NCBI GenBank assembly: GCA_934432725.1
Contig: CAKRZE010000001.1
Span: 207,031 to 271,030 of the forward strand
Direction: 5' to 3'
DNA: 64,000 nt
Origin: an uncultured Eubacteriales bacterium
Lineage (GTDB): Bacteria; Bacillota; Clostridia; Oscillospirales; CAG-272
Within the stretch, counting starts at the first letter, position 1. Each line of letters opens with the position of its first letter. Shown here piece by piece: positions 41,589-62,133 of this stretch. Made by a program: the position numbers and the translations under genes. A model generated the notes under the pieces. The model made no database searches, was not told the DNA's origin, and was given only the letters and a program-made list of their open reading frames with translations.

Positions 41589-41863
41589 ACGAATATCTCC
41601 ATTCCGCCGCCAAAGCGCCGGCACAATCAATGGATGAAGCTCTTCCGTATCCCTTCCGGAAAGCAAAATCTGCGAAGCTCTGTCTCCAAAGCAAACGCAG
41701 GCATACCCCCGCAGCCTTCCGAAAAAGCCGGCGAATCCATCACGCCGTTCTCCTCCGGCAAATAACCGATCCGCCCTGCGCGCAGGAATACAAAAATCCC
41801 CGGAAGCGCAAAAACCGTCAATTCTTAAAAATGCACAGTACACTCCATTTTCCCAATAAAAAA

Positions 41864-41892
41864 ATTATAACACCATTGCGCCTGAAAGGCAA
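41864..41892 (-). promoter_or_regulatory. candidate sigma-A promoter of the glycan operon
   Basis: Minus strand reads TTGCCT (41892-41887), a 17-nt spacer, then the extended -10 TGtTATAAT (41872-41864). It lies ~270 nt upstream of the first gene. Confidence 0.5.
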
Positions 41893-42301
41893 TACCAAAC
41901 CTTTAAAAAGAGGCGGTATTTTTTGTGATATTCCACTTCCCGGCAAACACTCTGCGCAGTATGCCCCAAAGCAGCACAGACTGTCTGCCGAAGCAGCCTC
42001 CGCCCCCCGAAAGCAGCAAAAAGCCTCCACCGCTCTCCCGGGTTTTCCTTCTGCATCTTGCTCCAGGGCTTTATAAAAGCATGCATGATCGGCGAAAGCA
42101 TCAAAAAACACCGCACCGCCGTATCGGCGAAGCGATGTAAGACAGCACTCTTTTCACAGCCGGCAGGCAATCCGGCTTTTGCCGGTTTCCCGCGTTCTGC
42201 GTTGTCAATATCTCATGAAGACTCCGGCCCCCTCGGTTTTATCATCCGCACGCGCCAAGGGGAAAACCGGGGATCCGGCTTCCCCATGTGATGGAGCGTT
42301 T

Positions 42302-42673
42302 TTACGGTTCATCGACAGTGACGGATCGAATCATGCTGCTGTTGTCCTCAAATACCACGCGGAGCTTTGCGGAAACAGCTTGCCCCTTATCGTTTTCCAT
42401 GACGCAATAGATACTGAACTCATTTTCCGAAATCTGCTCCATCCTTCCGAGCGCCTTCCGCTCCGGGCAGACCGAGACGATTTCTCCGTACCGTTCGGAA
42501 AACGCCCCCTGCTCCTTGACATACGCCTCTATCCGCTGGCACAAGCCTTCTGCCTTCATTTTTCGGGACCAATATCCGGTCAGGGAAAAGACAAGAATAT
42601 TCATCGCAGCAAACAGAGCAACCGTGCAAATAACCGTAATTCCGATTTTCCCCTTCCGACTCATACGCTTCAT
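42302..42673 (-). CDS. small N-terminally membrane-anchored protein (paralog of 58666-59052)
   Basis: Shares MNILVFSLTGYWS(R/K)KMKA.GLCQ, RMEQIS.NE and AKLRV.FEDN with the protein inside the RHS array. It has one TM helix. The start was chosen at ATG 42673 (AAGGAAGGG upstream). Confidence 0.6.
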   Translation of the reverse strand: MKRMSRKGKIGITVICTVALFAAMNILVFSLTGYWSRKMKAEGLCQRIEAYVKEQGAFSERYGEIVSVCPERKALGRMEQISENEFSIYCVMENDKGQAVSAKLRVVFEDNSSMIRSVTVDEP

Positions 42674-42872
42674 GCGCCATGCCCTTCCTTTCATACCGTC
42701 CATACCGCCCGGCTTCCGCAGGTGCGGAGCGAAAGCAGCAAAGGACCCCTCTCCGAATGTCCTGTCAACCCGCCGGCATACCCCGCCGTTTCAGAAATGC
42801 GCATTCTCTCTGCGCCCCCTTGCGTTTGGGGATATGCTGCCGCCGAGCACCTCCGGCAGCCGAAATCCGTAT

Positions 42873-43373
42873 TTACCGGATGCTCATACGGGTGCGTCCG
42901 TCATCATAATCGGTTTTTATCCGAATATTCGTTGCATGCAGCGCAGCAGCATTTTTGATAAATTGCAGCAAGAGCTGCTCATCTTTTGCATATATTTCAA
43001 AACAATCTCCGTCAGTAACAAGCACGGCAAACCGGCAGCTGCTTGCCAGAAAGTCGCGGTAATCCCTGATATCCTGCCGCGCATCTCCCCTGCGGTATGC
43101 CTGCAAATTAAGAAAAAACACAAAATAGGGTATGCACGCCTTCAATTTCTCAAAATAGGATGAATCCGTCTTGCCGCCAACAGCAGGCAGTGCGGCGGAA
43201 GTGTGTATTTCCTCCTCACTGATATAAAAATCATACCCGCAAAGCGGAATATTCGCAAAAATACCGCCAAGTACGTCCCCATACCCGATATCAGATAAAA
43301 ATTCTATTCCTCTCATAAAACGATCATTTTGCGTATGCAAAAGCTTCCTTCCCCGGGACAGGAGCGGCATCAC
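42873..43373 (-). CDS. hypothetical protein (immunity-like, no recognisable motif)
   Basis: 166-aa ORF in the same-strand run. The start is uncertain (GTG 43373, ATG 43370 or ATG 43316). Confidence 0.45.
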   Translation of the reverse strand: MMPLLSRGRKLLHTQNDRFMRGIEFLSDIGYGDVLGGIFANIPLCGYDFYISEEEIHTSAALPAVGGKTDSSYFEKLKACIPYFVFFLNLQAYRRGDARQDIRDYRDFLASSCRFAVLVTDGDCFEIYAKDEQLLLQFIKNAAALHATNIRIKTDYDDGRTRMSIR

Positions 43374-43466
43374 AGCACAGGCACGCGCTTTCGGACATCA
43401 GACACCGCCGCTCCTTCTCCACACATTCCTTTTTCTCCGTCAGCCAGCCGCAGCACGGCGCACCGC

Positions 43467-43994
43467 CTATGCCATAAGCCGCATGATCCGCCTCTCATCC
43501 TCCCCCTCAAAGGAAATCTGAGAAATGTCCTCTAAAGATACTGCCGATACTCCGTCCGCTTCCCCGTCGCAGGTAAATTGTCTGATCCGGCATTTTCCCT
43601 CATCTGCCGTCTCAACAAACCCGGTAATGTCATCATACCCGCTTTGGCAAAGCTCAAATGACACAAGGGTCCGGCGGTCTTTTGCAATCTTCAGCACGGA
43701 AAGCATTATATTTTCTCCGTCAATTTTTTCACAAAAATCCGGGAAAGACCCGTCCGAACACAGCTTTTCCATTCTCCTGCCGTATTTTCCGTCTGTCTCT
43801 ATGCGAAAAACACAGCCTGTATCCATGACAACAACTCCATCGTATGCTCCGTCGGGACTTGCAAGCTGCAATACGACCCAGTTTTCGTCCACCGCAAGCA
43901 CCTTACCGTAAATGAACCTTGACGGTTCCTGCTCATCTGTATAGATTCCCGCTTTTTTCCCACTTGCGCATAATTCTCTTAACAATCCGATCAT
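43467..43994 (-). CDS. hypothetical protein with two beta-rich half-domains
   Basis: Trimmed to ATG 43994 (MIGLLRE, SD AAAGGGAG 6 nt upstream). About 175 aa with no recognisable family motif. Confidence 0.55.
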   Translation of the reverse strand: MIGLLRELCASGKKAGIYTDEQEPSRFIYGKVLAVDENWVVLQLASPDGAYDGVVVMDTGCVFRIETDGKYGRRMEKLCSDGSFPDFCEKIDGENIMLSVLKIAKDRRTLVSFELCQSGYDDITGFVETADEGKCRIRQFTCDGEADGVSAVSLEDISQISFEGEDERRIMRLMA

Positions 43995-44058
43995 AACATG
44001 CTCCCTTTCTCTCTGCCGCCTGACGGAATAAACACCGCCGGGCAAATTGTCCGTTTAT

Positions 44059-44580
44059 CTACTGTTCCCGGACCTGCCGATCAAAAACAAGATGGTACGC
44101 CGTATTCCTTACATCCGCCGGACGGCGGCGCTCCGGATCAAAGCAAACCGAAAAATCTCCGCTGTCTGAATAACAGAATAGCAGCTCTGCAAAATGATTC
44201 GAAACCATCTCATCCAACCTGTGTTTTTGATAGTCACGATAAAACCGCTTGAAGGTCTCCCATTCCGAGACAGGATAAAATAACACTGTTTCAAGATAAT
44301 AATCGAAAACAGACGGGATGAAATGATAAATATCCTCTCCCGCTTTGATTCTGGCAACCGTCAGATACTCATTCAGCGCCTGTATCTCTCCGCGGCTTCG
44401 AAAGAACGCTGGAATTTCACTTTTAAGTTCTCTCTCCCGTTTTGCCGTCAGATTTACCCCGTCCGTGCGGTAAAAACCGAAAAACAATTCCTCTCCGGTC
44501 AAAAACGTCTTTAAAATCCGGTCCATGCTGCTCAAATAACCGCTTTGAAAACGAAAATTTTCAAATGTTATTACATGCAT
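44059..44580 (-). CDS. hypothetical protein
   Basis: ORF 44059-44757. The first 59 codons are R/G-rich, so it was trimmed to ATG 44580 (MHVITFENF). No recognisable motif. Confidence 0.45.
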   Translation of the reverse strand: MHVITFENFRFQSGYLSSMDRILKTFLTGEELFFGFYRTDGVNLTAKRERELKSEIPAFFRSRGEIQALNEYLTVARIKAGEDIYHFIPSVFDYYLETVLFYPVSEWETFKRFYRDYQKHRLDEMVSNHFAELLFCYSDSGDFSVCFDPERRRPADVRNTAYHLVFDRQVREQ

Positions 44581-44780
44581 CCCCGAAATCCCCGTATATT
44601 CATGCACGGCAAGCCGCCTCAACTCTGCCGCCTCCTTTCCCGCCCTCCAAAATACCCCGGAACCGTGTCGTCCTTTCCGGATCATCCGGCTGCGACCGGC
44701 AGAACGGAAAATAACATCTGTCGCCGCCTCGGTCTGTCCGCATGCCCTGCGCATCAAGCCGAAAGCGGCTTGGGCCTCCG

Positions 44781-45164
44781 TCAGGATACCGACTGCTTTC
44801 TTTCCGTTTCCTTTTCAATTTCAATGATCCGGATTGCCTTTTGCAAAAAACTTGCCTCCATAAGAATGAAAAGACACAACCCTAATATACCGTCCACAAT
44901 ATCCAAAACAATTCCATATATACGTAAGAAATCTCCTCTCACCACTCTCCATATTTCAAAGCCAAGCCAATCCGCCGTCATATATAAAACCAGACAAAAT
45001 AATGCACTGATCCAAAAACGGCATTTGAGCAAGCGGTTTGCGCTTTTGGGAATTTTAGAATAAATGATAATATTTTCAATTTCTTTGACATGGTCATAAT
45101 AACTGTTAGTTCTTATGTGGAATCGCTCGCCCAAGATATAAAAACACAAGTCCTTCAAGCTCAT
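44781..45164 (-). CDS. hypothetical small membrane protein (2 TM)
   Basis: Trimmed to ATG 45164 (MSLKDL, GGAGGAG SD 9 nt upstream). Hydrophobic segments WISALFCLVLYMTADWLGF and IVLDIVDGILGLCLFILM. The gene is AT-richer than its flanks. Confidence 0.55.
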   Translation of the reverse strand: MSLKDLCFYILGERFHIRTNSYYDHVKEIENIIIYSKIPKSANRLLKCRFWISALFCLVLYMTADWLGFEIWRVVRGDFLRIYGIVLDIVDGILGLCLFILMEASFLQKAIRIIEIEKETERKQSVS

Positions 45165-45448
45165 TTTCAAAATCTCCTCCGATGTCAACCGATCCGGAAT
45201 GCTTGCAGACTCTCACGTATCCGCAAACCGCCGGCGTCCGTATGGACCCGGTCATCCCCATTCTGCTTTTCGCTGAGGAAATACGGTCCGTTTACCGTCA
45301 ATCCGCGCCCGCCCGCAGATCAATCCCGCAAGAAACGCCTCAAGAACCGGCAGAAGAACCTCATGCCTGTCTGCTTTCCGTGCCATATGCCGCCAAGCCT
45401 ATCATACTCCGTCAAAGGCTCCGTGCCGCCTCTCTCCTTTTCAGACCT

Positions 45449-46102
45449 TCACTTCCGATTCATCTCAAGGCGCTTCATTTCTTCAAACGAAATCCGCTGT
45501 CCGCACTCCGAGCATCGAAAAAAGCATATCCTGAATTCCATGTCCCCGTCCGCATATGCATCACCGATTTCAAAATCATAGCTTCCGGCTTCCGGCGAAT
45601 CGGAATTTACACTCACGCTGTCATATGCCACTTCCATTTGTTGTCCGCACACGGGGCAAGCGTGCTTTTTCCAATAAACATAAACCGGCGATGCTCCGTT
45701 ATAGATATATTTTACCGCAGTCGGCTGATCCGGTCCTGTTCCCTCCGCCTTCCCACAGAAGGTGAGAGAAAGAAGGAGCAGCACCGCCGCAACGAGAACA
45801 CAGCATCCCAGGATTCTCCGAAGCAGCGACGGTTTGTAATGTTCAATCTTTTTCATTTCGTCAACCGTATAGCTTTTCCCGCAATGACCGCATTGAAACT
45901 CCGTTCGGACAACCCTGACATTTCCGATCATACATCCGTCATCGAATGAAAAATCATAGTTTTTTGCCTCATCCGAGCCTGAATTGACAATTTTTGAAGC
46001 CCGGGTCACTTCCAGTTCCCTGCCGCACAAAGGGCAATGATGCTTCCTGTATTTCACATAAAACGGACTTTCCCGAACCCACATAATATTATGAACGCCC
46101 AT
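45449..46102 (-). CDS. membrane protein with duplicated double-CxxC (zinc-ribbon-like) module
   Basis: Module 1 is HHCPLCGRELEV...FQCGHCGKSYTVDEMKKIE. Module 2 is HACPVCGQQMEV...FRCSECGQRISFEEMKRLE. They are separated by the TM helix ILGCCVLVAAVLLLLSL. Confidence 0.6.
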   Translation of the reverse strand: MGVHNIMWVRESPFYVKYRKHHCPLCGRELEVTRASKIVNSGSDEAKNYDFSFDDGCMIGNVRVVRTEFQCGHCGKSYTVDEMKKIEHYKPSLLRRILGCCVLVAAVLLLLSLTFCGKAEGTGPDQPTAVKYIYNGASPVYVYWKKHACPVCGQQMEVAYDSVSVNSDSPEAGSYDFEIGDAYADGDMEFRICFFRCSECGQRISFEEMKRLEMNRK

Positions 46103-46271
46103 TCTCCCATACCCCCGTTTATTTCTTCACAGTCAAAGCTGTCATGTAAAATGAACCACCGCCGAAGCCGTCGTCGGTCTGACCGACCCACGTCAGCCCA
46201 GCCGTTTATCCATCCGCAGGCGTTTCCGTGTCTTTAGAGTCCCTCCCGGATGCAAACCCCGAAGTCTCCGG

Positions 46272-46799
46272 TCAATCCGCCAGTTTAAGATACAATTGCG
46301 CACACGCCAATGCCGCATCCACCGCTATAGGGGCTGACGGATACTCAAATACCGACTTATACCGCAGATACACCTTCGGAAGGTTATGCAGTGCCTGAAG
46401 CAAATACCAAATCTTCTGCTGCTTTTTCCTGCTCAATGACTGCACCGTGTGCTCCAGCTGTTCGGCAATCGCCTGCATTGTCCGATTTATTTCCAAATAA
46501 GGCGAAAGATCACAAAGCGACGACAAAGCGAAATTCTCTTCTTTCCACTGATTGAATGACGCTTCGCTGATGCGGAATTGTTCCGTCCTTTCAAGAATTT
46601 TTTTGACAGTTTCATGATCACGCGCCGTTATATGATCGCAGGATATTGCCCGGACCATTTCGCTCATCAGATCAACAGAATCGGCAAGCTCTGCAATATA
46701 GCTTTTTGCCCACCACAGCTTGCCCGGGTTGCATCTTCCCTTTTCATAAACGGTCAGCCGATACAAAGCTTCTCCAAAAAACGATTGCTTACAAACCAT
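46272..46799 (-). CDS. hypothetical helical protein, weakly similar to the immunity candidate at 57027-57485
   Basis: ATG 46799 with an AAAGGGA SD. It shares the pattern (I/L)EH.(V/L)..L...K..(Q/E)....(L/F)..A(L/I)H(N/E)LP with ORF 57027-57485. Confidence 0.55.
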   Translation of the reverse strand: MVCKQSFFGEALYRLTVYEKGRCNPGKLWWAKSYIAELADSVDLMSEMVRAISCDHITARDHETVKKILERTEQFRISEASFNQWKEENFALSSLCDLSPYLEINRTMQAIAEQLEHTVQSLSRKKQQKIWYLLQALHNLPKVYLRYKSVFEYPSAPIAVDAALACAQLYLKLAD

Positions 46800-47076
46800 C
46801 ACAGTCCCTTTCGGCTTTTTTCAGGAATCGATTGTCAGGGCGCAGAAAACCGCATTCGGAGCCGAGCACGTCCGACTGCACACCCGGTCTGTCATATATA
46901 CCGATATATCCGATCTTTTCGCTTTCATTATACATCATTTATGCCAATCGGTCAAGGTTTTTTCCAGATAATTCAACTCCGGTCATGCACCTCTGCGCAT
47001 CCGGCGAGCGCTTCCGCTCCGTCCGGGTACGCGTCGGTCTCTTTTCCCCATGCCTTTGTCCCAGCTGCGGCAAACC

Positions 47077-47124
47077 GAAAAGCCGGTTGATACAACCTCC
47101 GTTGGCTGCACCGACCGGCTTTTC
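47077..47124 (-). terminator. possible terminator after the ABC exporter genes
   Basis: 11-bp stem GAAAAGCCGGT/ACCGGCTTTTC with a 26-nt loop. The minus strand continues CTTTTCGGTTTG. Confidence 0.35.
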
Positions 47125-47178
47125 CCGCCTCTTTTTTATATACATTTTCCGCCGATGCAGGGGCATTGGCGCCTCATT

Positions 47179-48825
47179 TCATCTGTCAGCCGCCCTGATC
47201 TCCACTGTCCTTCCGCCGAGGCTTTCATAAATGCGATGGGAGATGGAAAGCACGGTGCGTCCCTCGGAGACGCGGTACAGCGCTTTCAGGACGCGCGCCT
47301 CGGTTTCCGCATCAAGGTTGGCGGTAATCTCATCGAGAAGCAGCACAGCAGGATTTGCCGCCGCGGCGCGGGCGATGGACAGAAGCTGCCACTCCCCCTG
47401 TGAAAACATGCCCTCCGTGCATACGGTATCATATCCGTCCGGAAGCGCACGGATCGTTTCATCCATGCCGGCAAGCCCTGCCGCATTTTGCGCCATTTCC
47501 TCGGAAATGGAAGGATCTCCGAGCGTGATCTGGTCGAGCACCGTTCCGGGCACACGGCTGAAATGCTGTTCCACACAGCCGATGCGGCTCCGCCGCTCAC
47601 AGTCGGAAATATCCGAAACATCCGTGCCGCCGACGGTGACCGTACCGCTTTCCGGACGGTAAAGACCGAGAATCAGGCGGAATACCGTGCTTTTGCCGGC
47701 TCCCGTCCTGCCGACAAGCGTGACCTGTTCTCCCTCCTTCACCGTCATGGAAAAGTCGCGCAGCACCGGCTTTTCGCCATATCCGAAGGTGACATGGGAC
47801 AGAACCACATCCCCGTGTGCAGCATCGGTCCGCCCCATCGGGACCGTCCGCTCCGGCTGAGAAAGAAACGCATCGATCCGTCTGACTCCCGCCATTGCCG
47901 ACTGAATGGTCTGTATTTCCATGCCGAGACTTTCGATCGGGGAGAAAATACGGGAGATGTAGTTGATCACGGCGACCGATGTGCCGACCGACATCCCGAA
48001 CAGCGTCAGGATTTCCGCTTTGCCGGAAGCGGAAAGCAGCATCACGATTCCCACCACCGCCGCATTCAGCAAAAGCACCACGGGAGAGTATATGGCGTCA
48101 TAGAAGTTTGTTTTTTCCACGGCGGCATAGCTTTCGCCGATGCTTCGGTCATAGCGGCGCTCCATATAGTGCTCCGTGCCGAGCGCGTGGATGGTGCGGA
48201 TGTTATGAAGCGTTTCCGGAACCTGCCCGGACACCCTTGCGACAGCGCGGCGGTTATCAAGCTGCGCGGCAAGCATTTTCTTCTGCACATGTCGGGTAAA
48301 GACGGCAAAAAGCGGAAGGATCAGCAGCAAAACGATCGCAAGTCCTATGTTTTTGACCGCGATAACCGCAAAGATCGAAAGAATGCGGCACGCGTCCGCA
48401 GCCATACTGATAATGCCGGAGGTAAAGAGCGCCTCCACGGTATCCACATCCCCCGAAAAGCGCGCCGCCACCTCGCCGGGATTCTGCGAAACAAGTGTTT
48501 CTGCCGGCAGCCGCGTAAGCTTTTGCGACATTTCGGAGCGCAGCGCATGGGTCATTTTCTGACCGAACAGTACAAGCAGCGTTTCCTGCGCCGAAGAGAG
48601 CACTCCTTCAAGAGCAAGGCTTCCGAAATAGAGGAGCGCGGCGGCAAACGTCAACGGCATTCCGGCGGTCAGACGGTCGATGACGCGGGCAAGCAAAAGC
48701 GGCGGAAGAAGCGAAGCCGCAACCGATGCCGCCACACACAAAAGCGTGCCCAGAGTAAGAAACCGATGTGTCACAGCCGCCGATCTCACAGAGGCAAACA
48801 CGCCGCTCTTATTCCTGTTCTTCAT
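47179..48825 (-). CDS. ABC transporter permease/ATP-binding protein (type I exporter half-transporter)
   Basis: Trimmed to ATG 48825 (MKNRNKSG). Six TM helices plus an NBD with GRTGAGKST, FSQGEWQLLSIARA and LLLLDE. Confidence 0.85.
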   Translation of the reverse strand: MKNRNKSGVFASVRSAAVTHRFLTLGTLLCVAASVAASLLPPLLLARVIDRLTAGMPLTFAAALLYFGSLALEGVLSSAQETLLVLFGQKMTHALRSEMSQKLTRLPAETLVSQNPGEVAARFSGDVDTVEALFTSGIISMAADACRILSIFAVIAVKNIGLAIVLLLILPLFAVFTRHVQKKMLAAQLDNRRAVARVSGQVPETLHNIRTIHALGTEHYMERRYDRSIGESYAAVEKTNFYDAIYSPVVLLLNAAVVGIVMLLSASGKAEILTLFGMSVGTSVAVINYISRIFSPIESLGMEIQTIQSAMAGVRRIDAFLSQPERTVPMGRTDAAHGDVVLSHVTFGYGEKPVLRDFSMTVKEGEQVTLVGRTGAGKSTVFRLILGLYRPESGTVTVGGTDVSDISDCERRSRIGCVEQHFSRVPGTVLDQITLGDPSISEEMAQNAAGLAGMDETIRALPDGYDTVCTEGMFSQGEWQLLSIARAAAANPAVLLLDEITANLDAETEARVLKALYRVSEGRTVLSISHRIYESLGGRTVEIRAADR

Positions 48826-50551
48826 GCTGCTGCCCTCCTGTCTGCCCTTCGTAAAGCCGGCGGTATGACGGAGCCGATCCCATAAGCTCCTCATGCGTGC
48901 CGACTGCCGTTTTTCCGTCCTCCATAAAAATCACCCTCTGTATTTCGGGAAAATGGTACAGCCTGTGGGAAAGCAGAAAGACAATCTTGTCCTTCGCGTA
49001 ATTCCGCAGATTTGCAAAAACCGCATCCTCCGTGTTCCGGTCAAGTGCGGAAAACGGGTCGTCCAGGATCAGCACCGGGCGCGGATGCGCAAGCGTTCTT
49101 GCCAGAGCCAGTCTCTGTGCCTGTCCTCCCGAAAGGCGAATGCCGCCCGTTCCGATTGCGGTTTCAAGACCGTCCTCCATGGCAAGCACCTCACCGTACA
49201 GCGAGGCAGCGGCAAGATACGGCACAGCATCCTGCTCACTGCCGCAAAGCACGTTGTTCCGCACAGTATCGGTGCTGAGCTCGGGATCATGCCCCAGATA
49301 GCCGAATGTCGCCGCGATCTCACGCGAAGAAAGGTCCGAAAGCTCTCTGCCGCCGAAACGGACAGAGCCGCTGTACGGCGCTTCACAGAGAAACACCCGT
49401 CCGAGGGTAGATTTTCCGCAGGCAACGGGACCGGTCACGCCGATGATGTCGCCGGGACGCGCTGTCAGGGAAAGTCCCGAGAAAATCTGCTTCTCTCCGT
49501 AGGCAAAGGACAGGTTGTCAAGCGTTATACTGTCCGGCTGCGGTATGTTGAGTGCTTTCAGCGGCTCCGGCGATCTCATCAGCGGCTGAATTCTTTTCCA
49601 AGAAACCTCCGCCTTCTGCACGGAGTTAAACAGCTTTGCAATCTTGGAGGATTTAGCGGTCAGCTTTGTAAAACAGGAAAGAAAGGTGGTAAATGCCGCA
49701 ATGTCCCACCCGCTCCATCCGGCTCCGAGCACATTTTTCGCACCGAACCACAGAATAAAAAGCACCCCGGCGCCGGATGCCGCAAGGTACAGAGGCGGAA
49801 GCGCCGACTGCCAGACATTGCTTCGCACAGCGGTCTTTTCATAGTTTTTCAGGGCATCCTCATACCGCTCCGCCCTTGCAGCCTCGCAGCCGTATATGCG
49901 GTAGGTCACGGCATTCTCCGCGCGGTCAAGTGTGGCACCGCTCAATGCTCCCGCAGCCTTTTTATACGCCGCCCCCGCGCGCTGCACCGGCTTCTTCATC
50001 CATGCCGCGCAAAAATACGAAACCGGTGTGAAAATCAGGCTGAGCAGTGCCAGCCGCCAATCGTATACAAAAAGCATCACCGTATAGCCGACCAGAGCCA
50101 CGCCGGTATCAAAGACCTCTGTGGTAAATTTCCGCATTCCCTCCACGCAGTCATCCACATCGGAGATCGCTTTTGTCATCAGCTCTCCGACTCCCTCTTT
50201 TTCTAAGGAAGCCCGGCTTGTGCGCACCAAATTGGCATAAAGAATGCCCTTCATCCGGCGGTTGATGTTGTTGGCAAAGCGGCGGACATAAAAACGCTTG
50301 ATGAACCGCGCAGCCTGCACAACCAGCGTAACCGCAAGAAAAGCAAGAACCAGAACCGCCATTGCGCCTGCCGTCTCACTTCCGCCGAGAATATCGGCAA
50401 GGCACTGGGCAAGCCGTCCCTCAAACCACGGTGTCGCAAGCAGTCCGACATTATAAAGCAATCCGGAAACGGTCACAAAGGTCAGCGGCATCCATTCAAC
50501 ACGAAAATAAGAGCGTATTTTTTCCGGGCAGAAAATTTTTTCAGACTTCAT
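48809..50551 (-). CDS. ABC transporter permease/ATP-binding protein (type I exporter half-transporter)
   Basis: 580 aa. TMD plus an NBD with GPVACGKST, LSGGQAQRLALAR and ILILDDP. It is the probable heterodimer partner of the downstream gene. Confidence 0.85.
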   Translation of the reverse strand: MKSEKIFCPEKIRSYFRVEWMPLTFVTVSGLLYNVGLLATPWFEGRLAQCLADILGGSETAGAMAVLVLAFLAVTLVVQAARFIKRFYVRRFANNINRRMKGILYANLVRTSRASLEKEGVGELMTKAISDVDDCVEGMRKFTTEVFDTGVALVGYTVMLFVYDWRLALLSLIFTPVSYFCAAWMKKPVQRAGAAYKKAAGALSGATLDRAENAVTYRIYGCEAARAERYEDALKNYEKTAVRSNVWQSALPPLYLAASGAGVLFILWFGAKNVLGAGWSGWDIAAFTTFLSCFTKLTAKSSKIAKLFNSVQKAEVSWKRIQPLMRSPEPLKALNIPQPDSITLDNLSFAYGEKQIFSGLSLTARPGDIIGVTGPVACGKSTLGRVFLCEAPYSGSVRFGGRELSDLSSREIAATFGYLGHDPELSTDTVRNNVLCGSEQDAVPYLAAASLYGEVLAMEDGLETAIGTGGIRLSGGQAQRLALARTLAHPRPVLILDDPFSALDRNTEDAVFANLRNYAKDKIVFLLSHRLYHFPEIQRVIFMEDGKTAVGTHEELMGSAPSYRRLYEGQTGGQQHEEQE

Positions 50552-50572
50552 ATGTCTTCCAGCCTCCCGCGA

Positions 50573-51019
50573 TTATCGGATCAGGTGCAGAAATCCGGAC
50601 CGGCTTTCGGCTTTCGATGCCGTGTAGAGCTTATCCAGCAGCGCAGCAAAGGTCTGCGCTTCCGTTTCGGTCAGAACCGAGGTCAGGTACTCATAAAAGG
50701 ACGACTCGATCTCCGCCTTGGAGCATTTCAGCTTCTCGGCTTTCTCGGTGGGGAAAAGCAGCCTGCTGCGCCGGTCATCCGGATCATCCTCGCGCACAAG
50801 AAAGCCTTTTTCTTCAAGGTTTTTTGTTCTTCGCGCAACAGCCGCTTTATCCGCATGCAGCAGCTCTGCAAGCTTTGCCTGCGTACAGCCGGGATGGTGA
50901 CGCAGCGCATGAATCAGATCGATTTCCGCCGTGCCGACTCCCTCTTCCCGCAGGGAAAGCAGCACCAGTTTTTCCGCCTCGCGTGCAATTTTCGTGATTT
51001 TCCGCTCCGTAATGTCCAT
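50573..51019 (-). CDS. MarR family transcriptional regulator
   Basis: ORF 50573-51301 trimmed to ATG 51019 (MDITERK, GGAGG SD 5 nt upstream). Winged-helix region CTQAKLAELLHADKAAVARRTKNLEEKGFLVREDDPDDRRS. Confidence 0.85.
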   Translation of the reverse strand: MDITERKITKIAREAEKLVLLSLREEGVGTAEIDLIHALRHHPGCTQAKLAELLHADKAAVARRTKNLEEKGFLVREDDPDDRRSRLLFPTEKAEKLKCSKAEIESSFYEYLTSVLTETEAQTFAALLDKLYTASKAESRSGFLHLIR

Positions 51020-51214
51020 AGGTGCCTCCGCGTTTTCGTATAGTTGCAGGTACATCGTTGTATATACATCTATCATATCCGAAAACGGCGTTTTGTCAAG
51101 GGACATTTTGCCTGCAAGCCAAAAACATACGGATTCCATATCGTATCCCGAGCTCCGCAAAACGCTGCCTTCTGCTTCCAAGCGGCAGAGAGGGAGACAG
51201 CCGGCATTGATTCC

Positions 51215-51520: not shown

Positions 51521-52093
51521 TCATACCTGCTGTTCTTCCGCGCTCATCTGCTTAAGCACAGCCGTCTGCTCCCGGCTTTTTTGTTCCAGCTCTGCGCCGT
51601 AACGGAAGATCAATGAGACGAGAATCAGAACAATCCCGGTTATCACACTTCCGAAATTACCGGCATCTCCGATATGCTCCACCCCCTGCCAGACGGCAAC
51701 AGCCCCCGATACGGAAATGGCGATAACGGGAATATAGATAAAGCGAATGCCGAGCTTTTTCAGCCTCCCCGCGCCCTTTTCCGTAAACGGTGTACCGTCT
51801 GCCAGCTCGGATTTCAGATAACCGTATGCAAGTCCGAAAAGAATCGCATCCGCAATCAGCATAAATGCCGCGGACAGCAGCTCCACACATTTTTGCAGAA
51901 GATCTGTCCCATCGGCAAAGATTTTCAGCGGCTCGCCGTAAATCAGAAATACCGAACCGCCATGATACTGCGCTGCGGCACACAGCGCACCGACACCGAA
52001 CGCCGCCGCGCCGATGATGCAGAGGATATACGCGATCTTGGATAAAATGCGGAAGACGCGAAATGTCTTCTGAATGGCTTCAAGTGATTTCAT
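51521..52093 (-). CDS. polytopic membrane protein (paralog of 55575-56117)
   Basis: 190 aa, 4 TM helices. The N-terminus MKSLEAIQKTFRVFRILSKIAYIL resembles MKSLKSIQTLSKVGKILSEIAIVL of the paralog. Confidence 0.65.
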   Translation of the reverse strand: MKSLEAIQKTFRVFRILSKIAYILCIIGAAAFGVGALCAAAQYHGGSVFLIYGEPLKIFADGTDLLQKCVELLSAAFMLIADAILFGLAYGYLKSELADGTPFTEKGAGRLKKLGIRFIYIPVIAISVSGAVAVWQGVEHIGDAGNFGSVITGIVLILVSLIFRYGAELEQKSREQTAVLKQMSAEEQQV

Positions 52094-53269: not shown

Positions 53270-53695
53270 TTATCCGTTTGAAAAGCGTTCTTCCCCCCAC
53301 CAAGCCGGCATCAATTCCTTCAGAGTCACGGTTTCTCTTGTTTCATAGTTCACCATAATCTCCATGTTTTCATTTTCTTTGTTCAGCTGATACAGAAACT
53401 CACGGCACGCACCGCAGGGCATTCCGCTTCCGCCGCCGGACGGAGCCTCATCCCGAAAAGCGATCATTCTTTTGATTCTCGTCTGACCGCTGTTCACATA
53501 CATGTTAAGAGCGGCAACGCGCTCCGCACACAGGTTCATTACACCGCTGCACGCCTCAATGCAAAAGCCTGCATAAATGGTGCCGTCCCCGCTTTCCAGA
53601 GCGCATACCACATGATGTGCGTACACAAAAGGCGATACGTCCTCCGGGTGATATTCTTTTTTCGCCCGTCTATAGAGCTTTTCCCATATATCCAT
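53270..53695 (-). CDS. cytidine/deoxycytidylate deaminase-fold protein (cytidine or blasticidin-S deaminase-like)
   Basis: 141 aa with the zinc-binding motifs CAE (LCAERVA) and PCGACREF. Confidence 0.8.
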   Translation of the reverse strand: MDIWEKLYRRAKKEYHPEDVSPFVYAHHVVCALESGDGTIYAGFCIEACSGVMNLCAERVAALNMYVNSGQTRIKRMIAFRDEAPSGGGSGMPCGACREFLYQLNKENENMEIMVNYETRETVTLKELMPAWWGEERFSNG

Positions 53696-55260: not shown

Positions 55261-55578
55261 TTACTTTTGTATTTTTCGTTTGGGAAGCGGCGTGACCCGA
55301 AGCAGGATTTCTATGACTGCCTTAGCCAGCTCCCGGTTTTCGATATCCAATACGTAATGCACCTTGGCTCCGTCATAGGGAAAGTCCTCCGGCGCGTCCT
55401 TCATGATACCTTCAAGCTCCGGCAGCTTTTTGACCATGACGCAGTTGTCGCAGACAAGCAGAATCGGCTTTCCCTGAATATAGACAAGATACTCCCCGAA
55501 CATTTTTTTACAGGCAACGCCGTCGATTCCGCTCAGCTGATCCAGAACAAACTGAATATACTCTTTTGATGTACTCAT
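55261..55578 (-). CDS. TfoX/Sxy N-terminal domain protein
   Basis: Trimmed to ATG 55578 (MSTSKEYIQFVLDQLSGIDGVACKKMFGEYLVYIQGKPILLVCDN). ATGA overlap with the upstream gene. Confidence 0.75.
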   Translation of the reverse strand: MSTSKEYIQFVLDQLSGIDGVACKKMFGEYLVYIQGKPILLVCDNCVMVKKLPELEGIMKDAPEDFPYDGAKVHYVLDIENRELAKAVIEILLRVTPLPKRKIQK

Positions 55579-56117
55579 TGATCTTCCGCGCTTTCCCGCA
55601 GCTCTGCACCGCAGCGGCAAAGCAGAGAACCTATTATAAACATGATACCGAGTACGATGCTTTCTCTGTTATGATAAAGCAAGTCCATAGCCGCAACCTT
55701 TCCGTTCGGTATAAAGATTCCCCGGAGGATAATTTTGATCACAGCACAGCCCTCGGGGAGGATAAGTGCCAGAATGCCGAGCCGCAGCAGCTCTTTTGCA
55801 CCGGCAAGGGTAAAGGGAGTCCCGGCTTTCAGTTCGTTTTTGAAGAAGCTCTCCGCAAAGCATGCCAGTACCACTTCGCCGGCGCAGACAATCATCCAGC
55901 CCAAAACCGTTGCGACAAGGCCGGCATCGTACGAATCCCATGAGATCAGTCCGTGCAGGGTAAGCTCGCCTATTTTGATCAGACTGCTGCCGCCGAAAAG
56001 CAGACCGACAAGTGCCGCAATACATCCGCCCAAGCCGATGGAAGCCAGAACAATGGCGATTTCGCTGAGTATTTTCCCGACCTTGGAAAGCGTTTGAATA
56101 CTCTTAAGTGATTTCAT
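55575..56117 (-). CDS. polytopic membrane protein (paralog of 51521-52093)
   Basis: Trimmed to ATG 56117 (MKSLKSIQTLSKVGKIL). Same length class and TM layout as 51521-52093. Confidence 0.65.
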   Translation of the reverse strand: MKSLKSIQTLSKVGKILSEIAIVLASIGLGGCIAALVGLLFGGSSLIKIGELTLHGLISWDSYDAGLVATVLGWMIVCAGEVVLACFAESFFKNELKAGTPFTLAGAKELLRLGILALILPEGCAVIKIILRGIFIPNGKVAAMDLLYHNRESIVLGIMFIIGSLLCRCGAELRESAEDQ

Positions 56118-56341
56118 AAAAAGTCCTCCGTTTTTATCGAATCTCAATGTCTCCGTTTGCAGCTTCCACGGTCAGCCTGCCGTACAGGCTGCAAAGCGGA
56201 CGATACGGCGTCTGCGATTTGCTCTTTCCTGCGGAGCAACACCTCCCAAAGAACCTGACGTAAGCTTCAGCGCCCGTGCAAAGGTTTTTCCCTTTCCAAG
56301 CCGCCTCCGGCGCGTTCTGTCAAGTCCGGACCATTCCAGCC

Positions 56342-56554
56342 TCATGTATGTGCCTTCCCGGCAAACAGCACAGTCCTTCCCTTCATAGATATTTTTTTGA
56401 CCTCATAACCGTAATCTTCCAGCTCTTTTTTGTATTTCAAAAAAGAATGGTCAAGCGGTACGCCCGCAATTTGTTCTATCTCATCAAAGGTCAATACCAT
56501 CTGCGGCTTTCCGTTTGCCCGTATGTATTCCCAAAGTGCATTGTATTTGCTCAT
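56342..56554 (-). CDS. small hypothetical protein (70 aa)
   Basis: ATG 56554 with a strong AAAGGAGGGG SD (MSKYNALWEYIRANGKPQMVLTFDEIEQIAGVPLDHSFLKYKKELEDYGYEV...). The upstream part of ORF 56342-56788 is a recombination remnant. Confidence 0.6.
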   Translation of the reverse strand: MSKYNALWEYIRANGKPQMVLTFDEIEQIAGVPLDHSFLKYKKELEDYGYEVKKISMKGRTVLFAGKAHT

Positions 56555-56933
56555 TGCCCCTCCTTTGCTGACAATACAGCCCTCACTCTTACAGATCACC
56601 GCATGCGGAACTGATTCATCGTCTGCCATTTTTCCCTTAGAATCTAAGGTTTTTCTGTAAAACGCAATATCTTCATCATGAATAGTCCTACTATCAATAA
56701 ATTTATCATCCAATTTCTGAAATATCCTATAACTCTGAAAAAACGGTGATTTGGAGCACATGCGTATTGTCGCAGACCGCGATGACATCTCCCTGAAGGT
56801 TCGTGATATAGAAATTCAGAAGGATGTCCCCGTCATTTTCATCGTACCGCAGGCAGTATGTGGGCGAACCGTTCTCATCATAGAAGTATTCGATCCAGTT
56901 ATTCCCCCACGTTTCACGCAAAAGCTGCGTGCC
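56555..56933 (-). pseudogene. recombination scar: truncated RHS core fragment fused to an internal fragment of a 63248-63817-like gene
   Basis: 56766-56933 encodes (T)QLLRETWGNNWIEYFYDENG...VCDNTHV, then breaks. 56630-56765 is ~90% identical at the DNA level to 63506-63643. Confidence 0.7.
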
Positions 56934-57026: not shown

Positions 57027-57485
57027 TCACCGCTTTCTAATGTTTGTGTGCCACTTTTTTTCATACGGTTTTATATAAACTTTATCAAAACCTCGCGGCA
57101 ACCTATAATGATGATACACTAGTATCTCAGGAAGTTCATGTATCGCATCCACAAAATCATATGCTTGTTCATTTTTTCGATTCTTTAATAAATCCAATAC
57201 ATGCTCAATGCAATTCGTCAATAAAGCATATATTTTTTCATCATACAAAAAATCTCTATGAACATAATAATTATACGTAAAAGCGAATTCATATCGAAGA
57301 TCGCTAGAATCTACAACTGTTACTAATTTCTTACGTATAATATTGTCTGTATATGTTTTGTCACACCCTTTTTTTAACACTTGATGTATTTGATCCAATA
57401 TCATAATGTTATTTTCATGGTTCACATCCATTCTAATAACCATTAAAACATACGATATATCATACAGATCATTATCGTCTATCAT
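57027..57485 (-). CDS. putative immunity protein for the toxin tip at 57488-58066
   Basis: 152-aa AT-rich ORF. Its ATG lies 2 nt after the toxin stop (TAAagATG). Confidence 0.65.
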   Translation of the reverse strand: MIDDNDLYDISYVLMVIRMDVNHENNIMILDQIHQVLKKGCDKTYTDNIIRKKLVTVVDSSDLRYEFAFTYNYYVHRDFLYDEKIYALLTNCIEHVLDLLKNRKNEQAYDFVDAIHELPEILVYHHYRLPRGFDKVYIKPYEKKWHTNIRKR

Positions 57486-57487: not shown

Positions 57488-58537
57488 TTACCCCCTGTAT
57501 GCATATACAAATACATCAACAGCTTTTTTGGCTTTAATTGCATATGCAACCCTATGATTACCATTCAAAATAACAACATCAATACCAACCTCCACCATAT
57601 GATCCCCGCCAAATTTTATTGCATTATTCATACGATAAGGATCCAATGTTGAAAATTTTTTCTTTGGTATTAATGTTTTTGGATCAACCCCATACTGTGG
57701 TCCGGTCACTCCGGGCTTAAAAGGCACTCCTATTTTAGGAGACAATTTTTCCACTATATTTCCAGCAAGTTTGCTCGCGCCATAACCAACAGCCGCTTTA
57801 GTTGTTCCCCATGCAAATGATTTTGCTGCATCCGCAACATCATCTATCTCACCATCAATTGCATCCATTACAACTTCAGTAATACCAGATACCACACATC
57901 CAGCCACTGGTCCTACAGCTGAAGTAATAGCACCGGATACCGCTGCCACACCACCCCTATTCCAATTTATTTCAGATATAGAATTACCTGAAAGAAGCTG
58001 TCCAACAACCTCTAAACCAGCAGAAACCACGGCACCTGCAATTATGTGCCAAAACTCGCCGCCTCCGTCAGCACGGACAACGGGGTTATTGTCACAATAA
58101 GCATACAGGTTTTTATCGGTCAGAGCAGATGGGGACGCCATCAGAATTTCAGCCGAATCCGGCGATATCATTCTTCCGATCTCAGGATCGTAATACCGAC
58201 TGGATACGTAGTACAGCCCCGTTTCGCTGTCGTAGACATAGCCTCTGTAGCGCAGACTGTTCCACGATGCCGCGTTGGTCGCGTTCGTCACATCGTCGCC
58301 GTTTGTGTTTGTGACGGAAAGCAGCTTGCCCCATGCGTCATAATGGTAGAAGAACCGCGGCACATGCGTATTGTCGCACATCGCAATGACATCGCCTTGC
58401 AGATTCGTCACAAAGAAGCTGAGCTGAAGGAAGCCCACACGCTCGTCATACCGCAGCATGTACGACGGTACGCCGTTTTCGTCGTAATAATATTCGACCC
58501 AGTTATTCCCCCACGATTCACGCAGAAGCTGCGTGCC
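57488..58537 (-). CDS. orphan RHS C-terminal fragment with ~190-aa toxin tip (possible ParB/Srx-like nuclease end); no own start codon evident
   Basis: RHS core end: GTQLLRESWGNNWVEYYYDENG...YYVSSRYYDPEIGRMISPDS...NLYAYCDNNPVVRAD. A Gly/Ala-rich linker follows, then ...VVILNGNHRVAYAIKAKKAVDVFVY. RHS homology starts abruptly at 58537. Confidence 0.65.
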   Translation of the reverse strand, partial: GTQLLRESWGNNWVEYYYDENGVPSYMLRYDERVGFLQLSFFVTNLQGDVIAMCDNTHVPRFFYHYDAWGKLLSVTNTNGDDVTNATNAASWNSLRYRGYVYDSETGLYYVSSRYYDPEIGRMISPDSAEILMASPSALTDKNLYAYCDNNPVVRADGGGEFWHIIAGAVVSAGLEVVGQLLSGNSISEINWNRGGVAAVSGAITSAVGPVAGCVVSGITEVVMDAIDGEIDDVADAAKSFAWGTTKAAVGYGASKLAGNIVEKLSPKIGVPFKPGVTGPQYGVDPKTLIPKKKFSTLDPYRMNNAIKFGGDHMVEVGIDVVILNGNHRVAYAIKAKKAVDVFVYAYRG

Positions 58538-58632
58538 GCTTTGCCGAGAGCAGGCAGGTTTGCCTGCTCTCGGTCTGCTTGATGGAAGAATAACAATGAA
58601 GAAAAGCAAGTTTTTCGTTCGTATGGAGGGGT
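58538..58632 (-). repeat. conserved cassette-junction element, copy B
   Basis: Same ~95-bp element. Perfect hairpin at 58544-58573. Confidence 0.8.
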
Positions 58633-58665: not shown

Positions 58666-59052
58666 TCACTTACTCAATGGTCTAAATTCAGTAATAACAA
58701 TATTCTCAATTACATTGCCATTATCCTCAAATATCACCCGAAGTTTAGCGAAAAAAGCACTTCCCATATCATTTTTCAAGATGCAATATATCATATATTC
58801 ATTTGATGAAATCTGCTCCATTCTTTTGATATTCTTTTGATCAGGAGCAACGGAAACAATATTGCCACATTTTTCGAAAAACGTGGGGGCGTCTTTCACA
58901 TATTCTGTTATCAACTGACATAAACCATCCGCCTTCATTTTTTTCGACCAATACCCTGTCAAGGAAAAAACAAGAATGTTCATCATACAAAATAATACAA
59001 TTGCACATACTACAAACACCCGAATTTGAGTTTTTCGTTTCATGCTACTCAT
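58666..59052 (-). CDS. small N-terminally membrane-anchored protein (paralog of 42302-42673)
   Basis: ATG 59052 (MSSMKRKTQIRVFVVCAIVLFCMMNILVFSLTGYWSKKMKADGLCQ...). It sits between cassettes inside the RHS array and is AT-rich. Confidence 0.6.
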   Translation of the reverse strand: MSSMKRKTQIRVFVVCAIVLFCMMNILVFSLTGYWSKKMKADGLCQLITEYVKDAPTFFEKCGNIVSVAPDQKNIKRMEQISSNEYMIYCILKNDMGSAFFAKLRVIFEDNGNVIENIVITEFRPLSK

Positions 59053-59163
59053 TTCTTGAAGCACCTCTCAAAGAACTTGGTCAAATTCAACCCAGCGCTA
59101 AAATATGCACCGCCAATCGCGTGAATTCCTCCAAAAACAGAACTCAAGACAGCAATCGTATAG

Positions 59164-59571
59164 TCAAATGATAATTTCAATATCTACTCCTTTTGATACA
59201 ATATGCAATTCACCTCCCGAAAACATTTGAAACAGCAAGTAAAGACAGGATTCCATACATTCGCTGTTTTTTGGAAGATACGTCTTCAGATATGAAAAAT
59301 CTTCTTCCACAGTTAGCGAAATGATTGTTTCAGAACTTCCATATTTATCGCCCTTAATTGCAAATGCAATTTCTATACCATGAAAGATTAAGATAATCTT
59401 AACATTAAAAATCGGATTAATTAATTCGATTTTTATATTATCTTCACCACATTGATATTGGATATTTTTAAACTTCGCATCATGGACATAACTATTGTAC
59501 AGTAGTTCTTTTAATTCCCGGAGATTACCCTTATCGTATTTTAGCACATCTTCACCTTCATCATTATCCAT
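59164..59571 (-). CDS. putative immunity protein for the toxin tip at 59564-60091
   Basis: ATG 59571 overlaps the last codons and stop of the toxin ORF (ATGGATAA). About 135 aa and AT-rich. Confidence 0.6.
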   Translation of the reverse strand: MDNDEGEDVLKYDKGNLRELKELLYNSYVHDAKFKNIQYQCGEDNIKIELINPIFNVKIILIFHGIEIAFAIKGDKYGSSETIISLTVEEDFSYLKTYLPKNSECMESCLYLLFQMFSGGELHIVSKGVDIEIII

Positions 59572-60727
59572 ATGGAAAATAGATTGTTGCATATGGTTCT
59601 GGCACAATAGTTCCCGGATAATAATGCCCTGTGCCGTATATGTGATAATGTGGACCATTTGCATAAATAGGGTTTTCATCCCATCGAAACACTTCGGTAT
59701 CCGTAAGAGGATTCATCCAACTAATAAATGCCCCATTCTTTGTCCCTGCTCTAAATACTTTAACTAATCCAACCGGATTGAAAGTATTTGGATCTACAGG
59801 AAAAATAACTGACCTGTCAGGCTCTTTGGGAGTTGCTATGTCTTCCGATTTTTCTTCAGATTTCGGAACAGAAATATCTGGATATTTCGTGGCTTGATAA
59901 ATTCCATATCCTATAGCACTTGCAGTTAACAACGCAGCACCAGCCACGGCAACAGCATCTCCAAATGGAAGCGGTCCATCAACCGCAGCCACGCCCCCGC
60001 ACCCCGCATAAGCAGGAGACATAACGCCCATTGCTTTTCTGATTTCGGCAGCAGCTGTTTTAGCAAATTCCCATATTTCGCTCCAAAGTTTTCCCGTATA
60101 GTCAACCCTATTTACAGAATTATTTCCACAATAAGCAAACATGTTAGTGCCCAACACATTGTGCCCTGTAGAACATAACTATCCGGACTAATCCACCGAC
60201 CGATCTCAGGATCGTAATACCGACTGGATACGTAGTACAGCCCCGTTTCCCTATCGTAAACATACCCGCGATAAAGAAGCGTATTCCAGCCCGCAGAGTT
60301 ATCCGTGCTTGTGACAACGTTGCCGTTGACATCCGTCACGGAAAGCAGCTTGCCCCATGCATCGTAGTGATAGAAGAACCGCAGCGCGTGCGTATTGTCG
60401 CACATCGCAATGATATCGCCCTGAAGGTTCGTCACAAAGAAGCTGAGCTGAAGGAAGCCTACCCGCTCGTCATACCGCAGCATGTACGACGGTACGCCGT
60501 TTTCATCGTAATAATATTCAACCCAGTTATTCCCCCACGATTCACGCAAAAGCTGCGTGCCGTCGAAGATATACTGATGCTCCACGCCGTCAACCGTCTT
60601 GGACATCCGGATGCCGTCCGCGTTATACGCATAGCTGTAGGTTTTTCCTCCTACCGTTGCGCTTTGCAGCTGTCTGCCGTTCTGCCATGTGAACGTATAC
60701 CGCCTGCCGTTGTAATAGCTCAGCGCT
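59564..60727 (-). pseudogene. orphan RHS C-terminal fragment plus toxin tip, interrupted by a frameshift
   Basis: Frame A runs QALSYYNGRRYTFTWQNGRQL...YYVSSRYYDPEIGRWISPDS and then goes out of frame. Frame C continues NVLGTNMFAYCGNNSVNRVDYTG...GPHYHIYGTGHYYPG. The shift lies within 60161-60177. Confidence 0.7.
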
Positions 60728-60842: not shown

Positions 60843-61148
60843 CTATTCTGTAACAAATATCACATAAAATGAATTTCCGTTTGTTCTTATATAATTTGAA
60901 ATATATTCAAATGCAACCTTAATACTACATTCGACATTGAATTTGGAATCCCGACTGGATTCCATGTTATAATACCAACTATCATAGTTGTATTCCAATT
61001 TTTCTGTCAGAATATCCCCCCCTAAAACGATTTTCTTTTTGATTTTAAAATGCTTAAGGATTAAAATAGCATCTTCTATCATCCAAGCCGTTTCAGTATT
61101 GGAAAAATCCACAGAAGTGATTGTTTTATTTCCAATAGTAATTTTCAT
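60843..61148 (-). CDS. putative immunity protein for the toxin tip at 61153-61656
   Basis: 101-aa AT-rich ORF starting 4 nt after the toxin stop. Confidence 0.6.
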   Translation of the reverse strand: MKITIGNKTITSVDFSNTETAWMIEDAILILKHFKIKKKIVLGGDILTEKLEYNYDSWYYNMESSRDSKFNVECSIKVAFEYISNYIRTNGNSFYVIFVTE

Positions 61149-61152: not shown

Positions 61153-62133
61153 TCACCTCATCTTCCTAAAAAAACGGTGATTGCACAAACCATTAGGTTC
61201 TAAAATGTACTCAAAAACGCCGGGCGTATTATTTATACTTCCAGGCAGTTCAATCAAATTGCGCATAATACCGTCACCACCTTTTAATGGACGCCCCGAA
61301 TTAATATCAACAAATGTATCAATAACTGACGGAAAAGCGTGATTTAAATCTGCCGCATTATTCATTTGTTTTATAACCTTATCAGTATATCTAATACCGC
61401 TCGCGGATGTGTCAACGATATTCTCAACCCTATTTGCTGTTTTTGCTATATCATGTGTTGTATCTACCACATCAGCGACTTTATTAACCGTTTTAACAGC
61501 TCATGTCACTTCACCAACGCCTGTTACAAACGGAATAAGATCAATTGCATCTCCTGCTAATCCCGCCCATGCCCAAGGATCTGTTGGATTGACACAAACC
61601 TCAACAATACTCGCTCCAAGAGAAATAACATCAAAAACAGTTTCCCAGAGCTGACCGCCGTAGTCAACTCTTACAACAGGATTATTGTCACAATATGCAT
61701 ACAGATTTTTATCGGTCAGAGCAGATGGGGACGCCATCAGAATTTCAGCCGAATCCGGCGATATCATTCTTCCGATCTCAGGATCATAATACCGACTGGA
61801 TACGTAGTACAGCCCCGTTTCCCTATCGTAAACATACCCGCGACAAAGAAGCGTATTCCAGCCTGCGGAGTTATCCGTGCTTGTGACAACGTTGCCGTTG
61901 ACATCCGTCACGGAAAGCAGCTTGCCCCATGCGTCATAATGGTAGAAGAACCGCAGCGCGTGCGTATTGTCGCAGACTGCGATGACATCTCCCTGAAGGT
62001 TCGTGATATAGAAATTCAGAAGGATATCCCCGTCATTTTCATCATACCGCAGGCAGTATGTGGGCGAACCGTTCTCATCATAGAAGTATTCGACCCAGTT
62101 ATTCCCCCACGATTCACGCAAAAGCTGCGTGCC
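61153..62133 (-). pseudogene. orphan RHS C-terminal fragment, TG-motif pre-toxin linker and toxin tip, with an in-frame TGA
   Basis: ...NLYAYCDNNPVVRVDYGG...DLIPFVTGVGEVT-TGA(61503-61501)-AVKTVNKVADVVDTTHDIAKT...GVFEYILEPNGLCNHRFFRKMR. Both halves are in the same frame. Confidence 0.7.

Follow-up and report, generated by a model that had tools for sequence, protein, structure and literature searches.

The 64,000-nucleotide (nt) stretch of contig CAKRZE010000001.1 analysed here (the window) comes from a gut bacterium resembling Faecalibacterium and Gemmiger and carries, at 42302-46802, seven small, non-overlapping open reading frames (ORFs), all on the minus strand. With a confidence only slightly above even, we favour the reading that this block, or island, is a strain-variable cluster of orphan immunity genes against polymorphic, mainly RHS, toxins, lacking matching toxin genes. 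This reading, proposed in an initial annotation of the sequence, is well supported for ORF2, which belongs to the DUF2691 family and has close relatives in RHS loci, and plausible for ORF1, a paralog of which lies in the organism's own RHS orphan array. For ORF3-ORF7 we found no positive evidence, and their immunity role is assumed by association only. The seven genes are as follows (lengths in amino acids, aa).

ORF1, 42302-42673, minus strand: 123 aa, with an N-terminal membrane anchor (aa 10-28) followed by a domain of ~85 aa.
ORF2, 42873-43316, minus strand: 147 aa, DUF2691 (PF10903), predicted cytosolic orphan immunity protein.
ORF3, 43467-43994, minus strand: 175 aa, soluble and acidic (pI 4.5).
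ORF4, 44059-44622, minus strand: 187 aa, soluble, with a TTG start codon and an AGGAGG Shine-Dalgarno site; last gene of a 2.1-kb variable segment.
ORF5, 44781-45164, minus strand: 127 aa, predicted membrane protein with one or two hydrophobic segments; 37% guanine plus cytosine (GC).
ORF6, 45449-46102, minus strand: 217 aa, two duplicated CxxC...CxxC zinc-ribbon-like domains around a hydrophobic segment (aa 97-115).
ORF7, 46272-46799, minus strand: 175 aa, soluble.

ORF2 matches DUF2691 with 63.2 bits (cut-off 25; E 3e-17) over model positions 1-152 of 152 and scores 157 bits against a profile made from 79 members of the family. The initial annotation had considered that the families in the block could not be named, which this full-length match contradicts for ORF2. 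An exhaustive HMMER scan of 1.84 billion proteins identified 360 DUF2691 clusters at 50% identity, the best 150 of which stand alone as proteins of 73-175 aa, with most close to 150 aa; ORF2 is likewise a single-domain protein of about this size. We found no published functional assignment of DUF2691, and a DUF2691 pattern scan of one genome per GTDB species returned no close, pattern-matching relative of ORF2.

The closest relatives of ORF2 that were examined, from gut metagenomes and 53-59% identical to it, lie in RHS contexts in all four cases. P0161 occurs on five contigs (five samples) and begins 10 nt beyond a gene whose product closes with an RHS core terminus, ...RYYDPVVGRFINADS...NMFAYCGNNPVSRFDPTG (...NNPVSRFDPTG), followed by a C-terminal tip of roughly 170 aa; on its 3' side the next RHS fragment begins after 20 nt and is succeeded by a DUF4225-like tip and then by another small gene. 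These surroundings match the classic orphan-module layout. Upstream of P0163, at a distance of 8 nt, lies the gene of an RHS protein; its matched C-terminal 242 aa, tip included, are 79% identical to the gene on contig L102. On contig L108, a cut gene with a 3' end similar to the C-terminal tail of the DUF2691-partner tip precedes P0164 by 10 nt, and on contig L107 P0164 is preceded by a truncated RHS remnant; P0166 adjoins an RHS remnant of 85 aa, which follows it. Thus, homologs of ORF2 at 53-59% identity stand 8-10 nt after an RHS tip on contigs L102-L106 and L109, and ORF2 is the only island gene for which close homologs were found in the immediate toxin-downstream position that characterises RHS immunity proteins.

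The RHS tip that accompanies these genes carries the motif WYDDDGNLTKERWYGPDGRVTKDRHHT[DN]HGNSKQHP.VPHDHDW, belongs to no Pfam family and has no tblastn match anywhere in the window. Because its relatives are RHS-linked and this tip is absent from the window, ORF2 appears to be an immunity gene without its toxin, and its assignment as a putative orphan immunity gene is well supported. Pairwise identities within the RHS-linked clostridial clade of DUF2691 are 53-68%, a range that also covers ORF2. Structure prediction with AlphaFold2 gave a model of ORF2 with a pLDDT of 90.8, for which Foldseek found no significant neighbour in the PDB (best E 0.07, TM score at most 0.37). Judged by gene context, immunity to an unnamed RHS toxin tip would be the role of the clostridial clade, whose predicted fold lacks any solved relative. 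ORF2 is accordingly pictured as a cytosolic protein that would neutralise the unnamed family of RHS C-terminal tips bearing this motif.

A link between ORF1 and the RHS array, already proposed in the initial annotation, is confirmed by a match of ORF1 to the array gene 58666-59064 (57% identity over 122 aa, E 4e-52). The two array genes of interest are listed below.

ORF1 paralog, 58666-59046, minus strand: flanked on one side by the immunity-position gene 59164-59679 and on the other by the next RHS fragment, 58609-57488.
Immunity-position gene, 57027-57485, minus strand: directly after the RHS toxin tip 57488-58609; no Pfam match; possible distant relative of ORF7.

That the array is a true RHS toxin/immunity array is evident from RHS_repeat and YD-shell matches in its fragments and from an Imm40 gene at 60843-61148; in other strains it holds other cassettes, for example Imm-NTF2-2. 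ORF1 is a candidate membrane-anchored immunity protein and, like its array-borne paralog, would act at the membrane or at its outer face. Single-nucleotide polymorphisms in ORF1 among strains comprise six synonymous and three non-synonymous changes.

Several further features of the array were recorded. Two of its three RHS orphan modules (59564-60606 and 61153-62121) are each split into two ORFs, with the RHS fragment and the tip in different frames or separated by a stop; strains L009 and L010 carry an intact 300-aa RHS-tip ORF before the same Imm40 gene, and the split modules are probably pseudogenised. The ORFs that flank the array (56342-56788 and 63248-63919) are otherwise unlike but have in common a 42-aa stretch, FQKLDD.FI..RTIHDEDIAFYR.TLD...KMAD, at 79% identity, and could be duplicated array borders or a repeated cassette. 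On contig L102, the RHS orphan module beside the DUF2691 gene (1953-2929) ends in a DUF4225-like region and a ParB-like 'DAHHR' tail, which resembles the 'NGNHR' tail of the window tip 57488-58066; the 109-aa gene 3' of that module has no similarity to 57027-57485 or to ORF7.

The gene layout described in the initial annotation, seven small same-strand ORFs between a glycan operon and an exporter, was borne out, with lengths of 123-217 aa. The left neighbour of the block is the Bac_transf priming glycosyltransferase of a long glycan operon, starting at about 41588/41843, and the right neighbour is an ABC gene that ends at 47179 and is the second gene of a MarR-ABC-ABC exporter operon. Gene starts were set from start codons and Shine-Dalgarno sites, from gene calls on identical metagenome contigs and, for ORF4, from the N-terminus of one homolog. 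In a codon model trained on host genes, the own frame is the best of the six for every ORF, ORF5 having the weakest coding signal of the seven. Relative to a diverged homolog of roughly 76% identity, the ratio of non-synonymous to synonymous substitution rates (dN/dS) is 0.16 for ORF2 and 0.13 for ORF3, which identifies these two as real, constrained genes; they are under purifying selection and are maintained, not junk. The hydrophobic segments predicted for three of the ORFs were found in ORF1, ORF5 and ORF6, and the duplicated CxxC pairs noticed in one ORF correspond to the two CxxC...CxxC domains of ORF6. ORF3 contains a unit of ~80 aa, made of a helix plus beta-strands, that is tandemly duplicated. 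The best site in a promoter consensus scan could drive the whole island:

Promoter-like site, 46927-46955, minus strand: TTGACC-17-TATAAT, 11 of 12 consensus positions, upstream of ORF7.

No toxin gene had been noticed in the block, and tblastn indeed detected no RHS or toxin relic in 41800-47250, even at E = 5. With the DUF2691-partner tip also missing, the island has no cognate toxin in cis within the 64-kb window. Its base composition is intermediate: GC is 37-51% in the island genes, with most at 44-51%, compared with 52-59% in the host genes on either side and 29-37% in the genes of the RHS array. The same order is seen in the codon-model scores, which are 0.02-0.27 bits per codon for the island ORFs, about 0.4 for host core genes and about 0 for RHS-array genes. 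This intermediate composition and codon usage suggest that the island genes are older residents than the low-GC RHS cassettes.

Such a gradient bears on a possible origin of the island as a former RHS orphan array, from which the toxin fragments were deleted and in which the remaining immunity genes drifted towards the composition of the host. ORF1, at 51% GC (0.51) against 34% (0.34) in its live-array paralog, fits such a drift, as do the island values lying between array and host, and the DUF2691 genes on contigs L107 and L101 stand beside truncated RHS remnants, which indicates that decay of this kind occurs. The failure to find any RHS relic argues against it, and the intergenic gaps of 65-380 nt are too short for degraded RHS fragments. 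The island genes may be survivors of a decayed array, but we regard this as unlikely, if far from negligible. It would in any case explain their origin only and is compatible with an orphan-immunity function.

The island was found on human-gut metagenome contigs by exact-match look-ups, and its content varies. On contigs L003-L006 and L008, about position 46150 is joined directly to about 44040, with flanks more than 99% identical to the window, and the following segment is missing:

ORF6-ORF5-ORF4 segment, 44041-46150: 2.1 kb, present or absent between strains of one species.

The segment consists of ORF6, ORF5 and ORF4 with their upstream regions, and its junction is an 8-bp microhomology, CGGCGGTG (46157-46164 and 44033-44040). 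This octamer occurs 10 times in the window against 2.7 expected, and five copies lie within 42.1-46.2 kb (42114, 43403, 44033, 45782 and 46157), all on the coding strand and four of the five in intergenic gaps. Its enrichment was rejected as not robust because 14% of Markov simulations give some 8-mer at least five times, and no conservation was seen in the sequence flanking the copies. A second, small indel polymorphism lies at the island border between the ABC gene and ORF7 (46995-47005), where an insertion of ~30 bp with an 11-bp overlap is present in several strains (contigs L004-L006 and L008).

A different rearrangement is seen in another organism. Positions 1-1119 of a contig in ENA ERZ15610112 (L110; about 76% nucleotide identity to the window) carry an ORF2-like gene, a 53-aa ORF, an ORF3-like gene and an ORF4-like gene, all co-directional, so that the family order is 2-3-4 on this contig and 4-3-2 in the window. 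Since all three families recur there in permuted form, they travel together in that organism, and the permuted order looks like the behaviour of cassettes. We propose a mechanism in which the island genes would be independent cassettes that are gained, lost and reordered, as in the ORF4-ORF6 indel and the permutation on L110, and in which each of the small island proteins would protect the cell by binding, and so neutralising, a single toxin domain that competitors deliver.

The indel also admits a narrower explanation, namely that ORF6, ORF5 and ORF4 form a separate membrane-associated unit (a defence, toxin-antitoxin or signalling system) that either entered or was lost from an older ORF7-ORF3-ORF2-ORF1 array. 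Gain or loss affects the three genes jointly, with clean junctions about 46-58 nt upstream of the start codons of ORF6 and ORF3; their composition is unlike that of the rest of the island, ORF5 having only 37% GC; and their architecture runs from a zinc-ribbon/transmembrane (TM) protein through a TM protein to a soluble one. We nevertheless find this account quite improbable: the unit has no PADLOC, PHROG or Pfam match and none in the scans run against viral contigs (ORF4, ORF6) and plasmids (ORF4), the microhomology at the junction fits a simple deletion, and ORF4 is not tied to ORF5 and ORF6, because an ORF4-like gene directly follows the ORF3-like gene on L110.

Profile searches added little to the orphan-immunity reading beyond ORF2. 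The initial annotation had proposed a comparison with Imm, SUKH/SMI1 and defence-system models, and this produced no assignment for any of the seven ORFs. None matches a Pfam immunity family (Imm1-74, SUKH/SMI1_KNR4, Imm-NTF2 and others) at E <= 1, in a scan in which the RHS-array gene 60843-61148 served as positive control and matched Imm40, and against the PADLOC defence-system models there were only chance-level CxxC matches of ORF6 (E >= 0.008). ORF1, ORF3, ORF4, ORF5 and ORF7 have no match in Pfam, NCBIfam, PADLOC or PHROGs, and ORF6 has only generic zinc-ribbon/CxxC matches over 10-30 residues in these collections. The profile scans also gave no match to a housekeeping family; the initial annotation had named such a match as evidence against its reading.

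Homologs of these proteins are scarce. Among 5.8 billion proteins, ORF1 retrieved only its own cluster and ORF3 two clusters, with a single diverged relative; among 15 billion proteins, the 90%-identity clusters of all seven ORFs hold 3-9 member sequences each. Sequence searches of the PDB with ORF2, ORF3, ORF4, ORF7, the DUF2691 profile and an ORF1 profile gave no match. The same was true of scans of JGI metagenomes with ORF1 plus its paralog and with ORF7, of viral contigs with ORF6, ORF4 and DUF2691, and of plasmids with ORF4 and ORF7 (tblastn), so that these narrower scans, as run for each ORF, revealed no relatives of ORF4, ORF6 or ORF7. An AlphaFold2 model of ORF3 built from two sequences reached a pLDDT of 46 and was not usable. 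An apparent split of ORF3 on contig L112 was rejected as a frameshift; it is a scaffold gap of Ns.

Related loci were collected with the adjacent ABC protein as query, in a scan of one genome for each GTDB species. This yielded 80 loci (L015-L094) in Faecalibacterium, Gemmiger, Subdoligranulum and unnamed Oscillospiraceae/Clostridia, with 77-88% amino acid identity of the ABC protein. The MarR-ABC-ABC operon (47179-51076 in the window) is common to all 80, and both of its flanks differ in each; the operon behaves as a stable unit whose surroundings vary. None of the seven ORFs, no RHS piece and no glycan operon was found within 10 kb at any of these loci. The synteny survey suggested with the initial annotation, which had named conservation of the block in genomes lacking polymorphic toxins as a result against its reading, thus shows that the seven ORFs are absent from the related species, and is otherwise uninformative, only MarR-ABC-ABC being conserved. 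The island is restricted to one species and variable within that species. No recombinase, transposase, mobility domain or phage gene occurs among the called genes at 33.5-54 kb or the flanking ORFs, and the island contains no repeated intergenic elements, only short chance-level matches.

Between the exporter and the RHS array lies a pair of paralogous multi-TM genes (51521-52093 and 55575-56147; 34% identity). A DUF2975 match of the first is weak and stays below threshold (19.4 bits, cut-off 27), and the second has no Pfam match. The pair brackets a TetR gene, a TfoX_N-like gene and the ORF 53270-53695, which has a borderline match to cytidine/dCMP deaminases (24.6 bits, cut-off 25).

The main rival explanation is that the block is a mixed accessory collection in a recombination-permissive gap between two operons. 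On this view the immunity genes are limited to ORF2 and perhaps ORF1, and ORF3-ORF7 would be unrelated genes particular to the lineage, encoding small membrane and zinc-ribbon proteins of other function. For ORF3-ORF7, neither an immunity-family match nor a homolog linked to a toxin was found; ORF1 and ORF3 both rank as near-ORFans, and ORF5 and ORF6 as membrane or zinc-ribbon proteins; and the position is generally variable, since the flanks of MarR-ABC-ABC differ in every related species. However, the ORF2, ORF3 and ORF4 families co-occur in another order elsewhere, which points to a shared pool or function rather than to random accumulation; all seven genes point the same way and have the size typical of immunity genes; and the RHS array is 10 kb away. 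This explanation is possible but, in our view, rather doubtful.

Several findings also weigh directly against an orphan-immunity function of the island as a whole. Direct contextual support exists for one gene of the seven, and ORF3-ORF7 match no known immunity family in the Pfam scan. DUF2691 itself is not exclusively toxin-linked, because its Bacillales members stand alone: those of Bacillus, Paenibacillus and Niallia, 27-31% identical to ORF2, lie among unrelated genes with no toxin gene within 8 kb, in contrast to the RHS-linked clostridial clade to which ORF2 belongs. The ORF1 paralog is the second, not the first, gene after a toxin tip, which leaves its own role unproven. The resemblance of ORF7 to 57027-57485 that had been claimed is collinear but only marginal, at 28% identity over 29 aa. 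The L110 contig has no toxin in view and, at 1.1 kb, is too short to show its flanks. A TM-plus-zinc-ribbon protein (ORF6) and a multi-TM protein (ORF5) would be unusual as immunity proteins. Finally, a cognate toxin could be encoded elsewhere, as the window covers only 64 kb of the genome.

The concept of orphan immunity genes and islands is established. The island resembles the orphan immunity genes and modules of Rhs, CDI and LXG systems in its small co-directional genes, in the presence of ORF2 relatives and of the ORF1 paralog in RHS arrays, in the lack of a toxin in cis and in its variation from strain to strain. It differs from them in lying 10 kb from the RHS array with conserved operons between, in lacking RHS fragments and in that five of its seven families are unnamed near-ORFans.

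A second comparison is with the acquired interbacterial defence (AID) clusters of gut Bacteroidales. In the description by Ross et al. (bioRxiv 10.1101/471110), AID-1/2 and rAID-1 protect mainly against type VI secretion system effectors of Gram-negative Bacteroidales; transfer from strain to strain was demonstrated for AID-1, and a XerD-like recombinase together with repeated intergenic sequences is found in rAID-1. Like these clusters, the island is a toxin-less array of candidate immunity genes in a human-gut bacterium, with a GC content unlike that of the host and strain-variable content. Unlike them, it lacks repeated intergenic elements and has neither a recombinase nor a mobility gene in its vicinity, and the presumed threat to its host is RHS toxins of Gram-positive Oscillospiraceae-type bacteria. 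Having neither a recombinase nor intergenic repeats, it fails two defining features of rAID-1, although the concept is the same. We advance only tentatively, as a speculation more doubtful than the immunity function itself, that the island is a Gram-positive (Oscillospiraceae) counterpart of Bacteroidales acquired interbacterial defence. It would then be a recombinase-free store that shuffles cassettes, in which ORF1, ORF3, ORF4 and ORF7, and possibly ORF5 and ORF6, represent unrecognised immunity families and the DUF2691 protein is the partner of the unnamed RHS toxin.

Because the orphan-immunity concept is already established, the gain is incremental. What is new is a further candidate orphan immunity cluster in a little-studied group, and the concrete, if modest, advance is the link of the clostridial DUF2691 clade to an RHS tip. 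Toxin antagonism and acquired immunity are well documented in gut Bacteroidales; to our knowledge, they have hardly been explored in Firmicutes of the Faecalibacterium/Gemmiger type. If the orphan-immunity reading is correct, it would give DUF2691, or at least the clostridial clade, a first function, namely that of antidote against an unnamed RHS tip, and would add up to five new candidate immunity families. It would also mean that the Faecalibacterium/Gemmiger-type group possesses orphan immunity clusters and that these differ from strain to strain.

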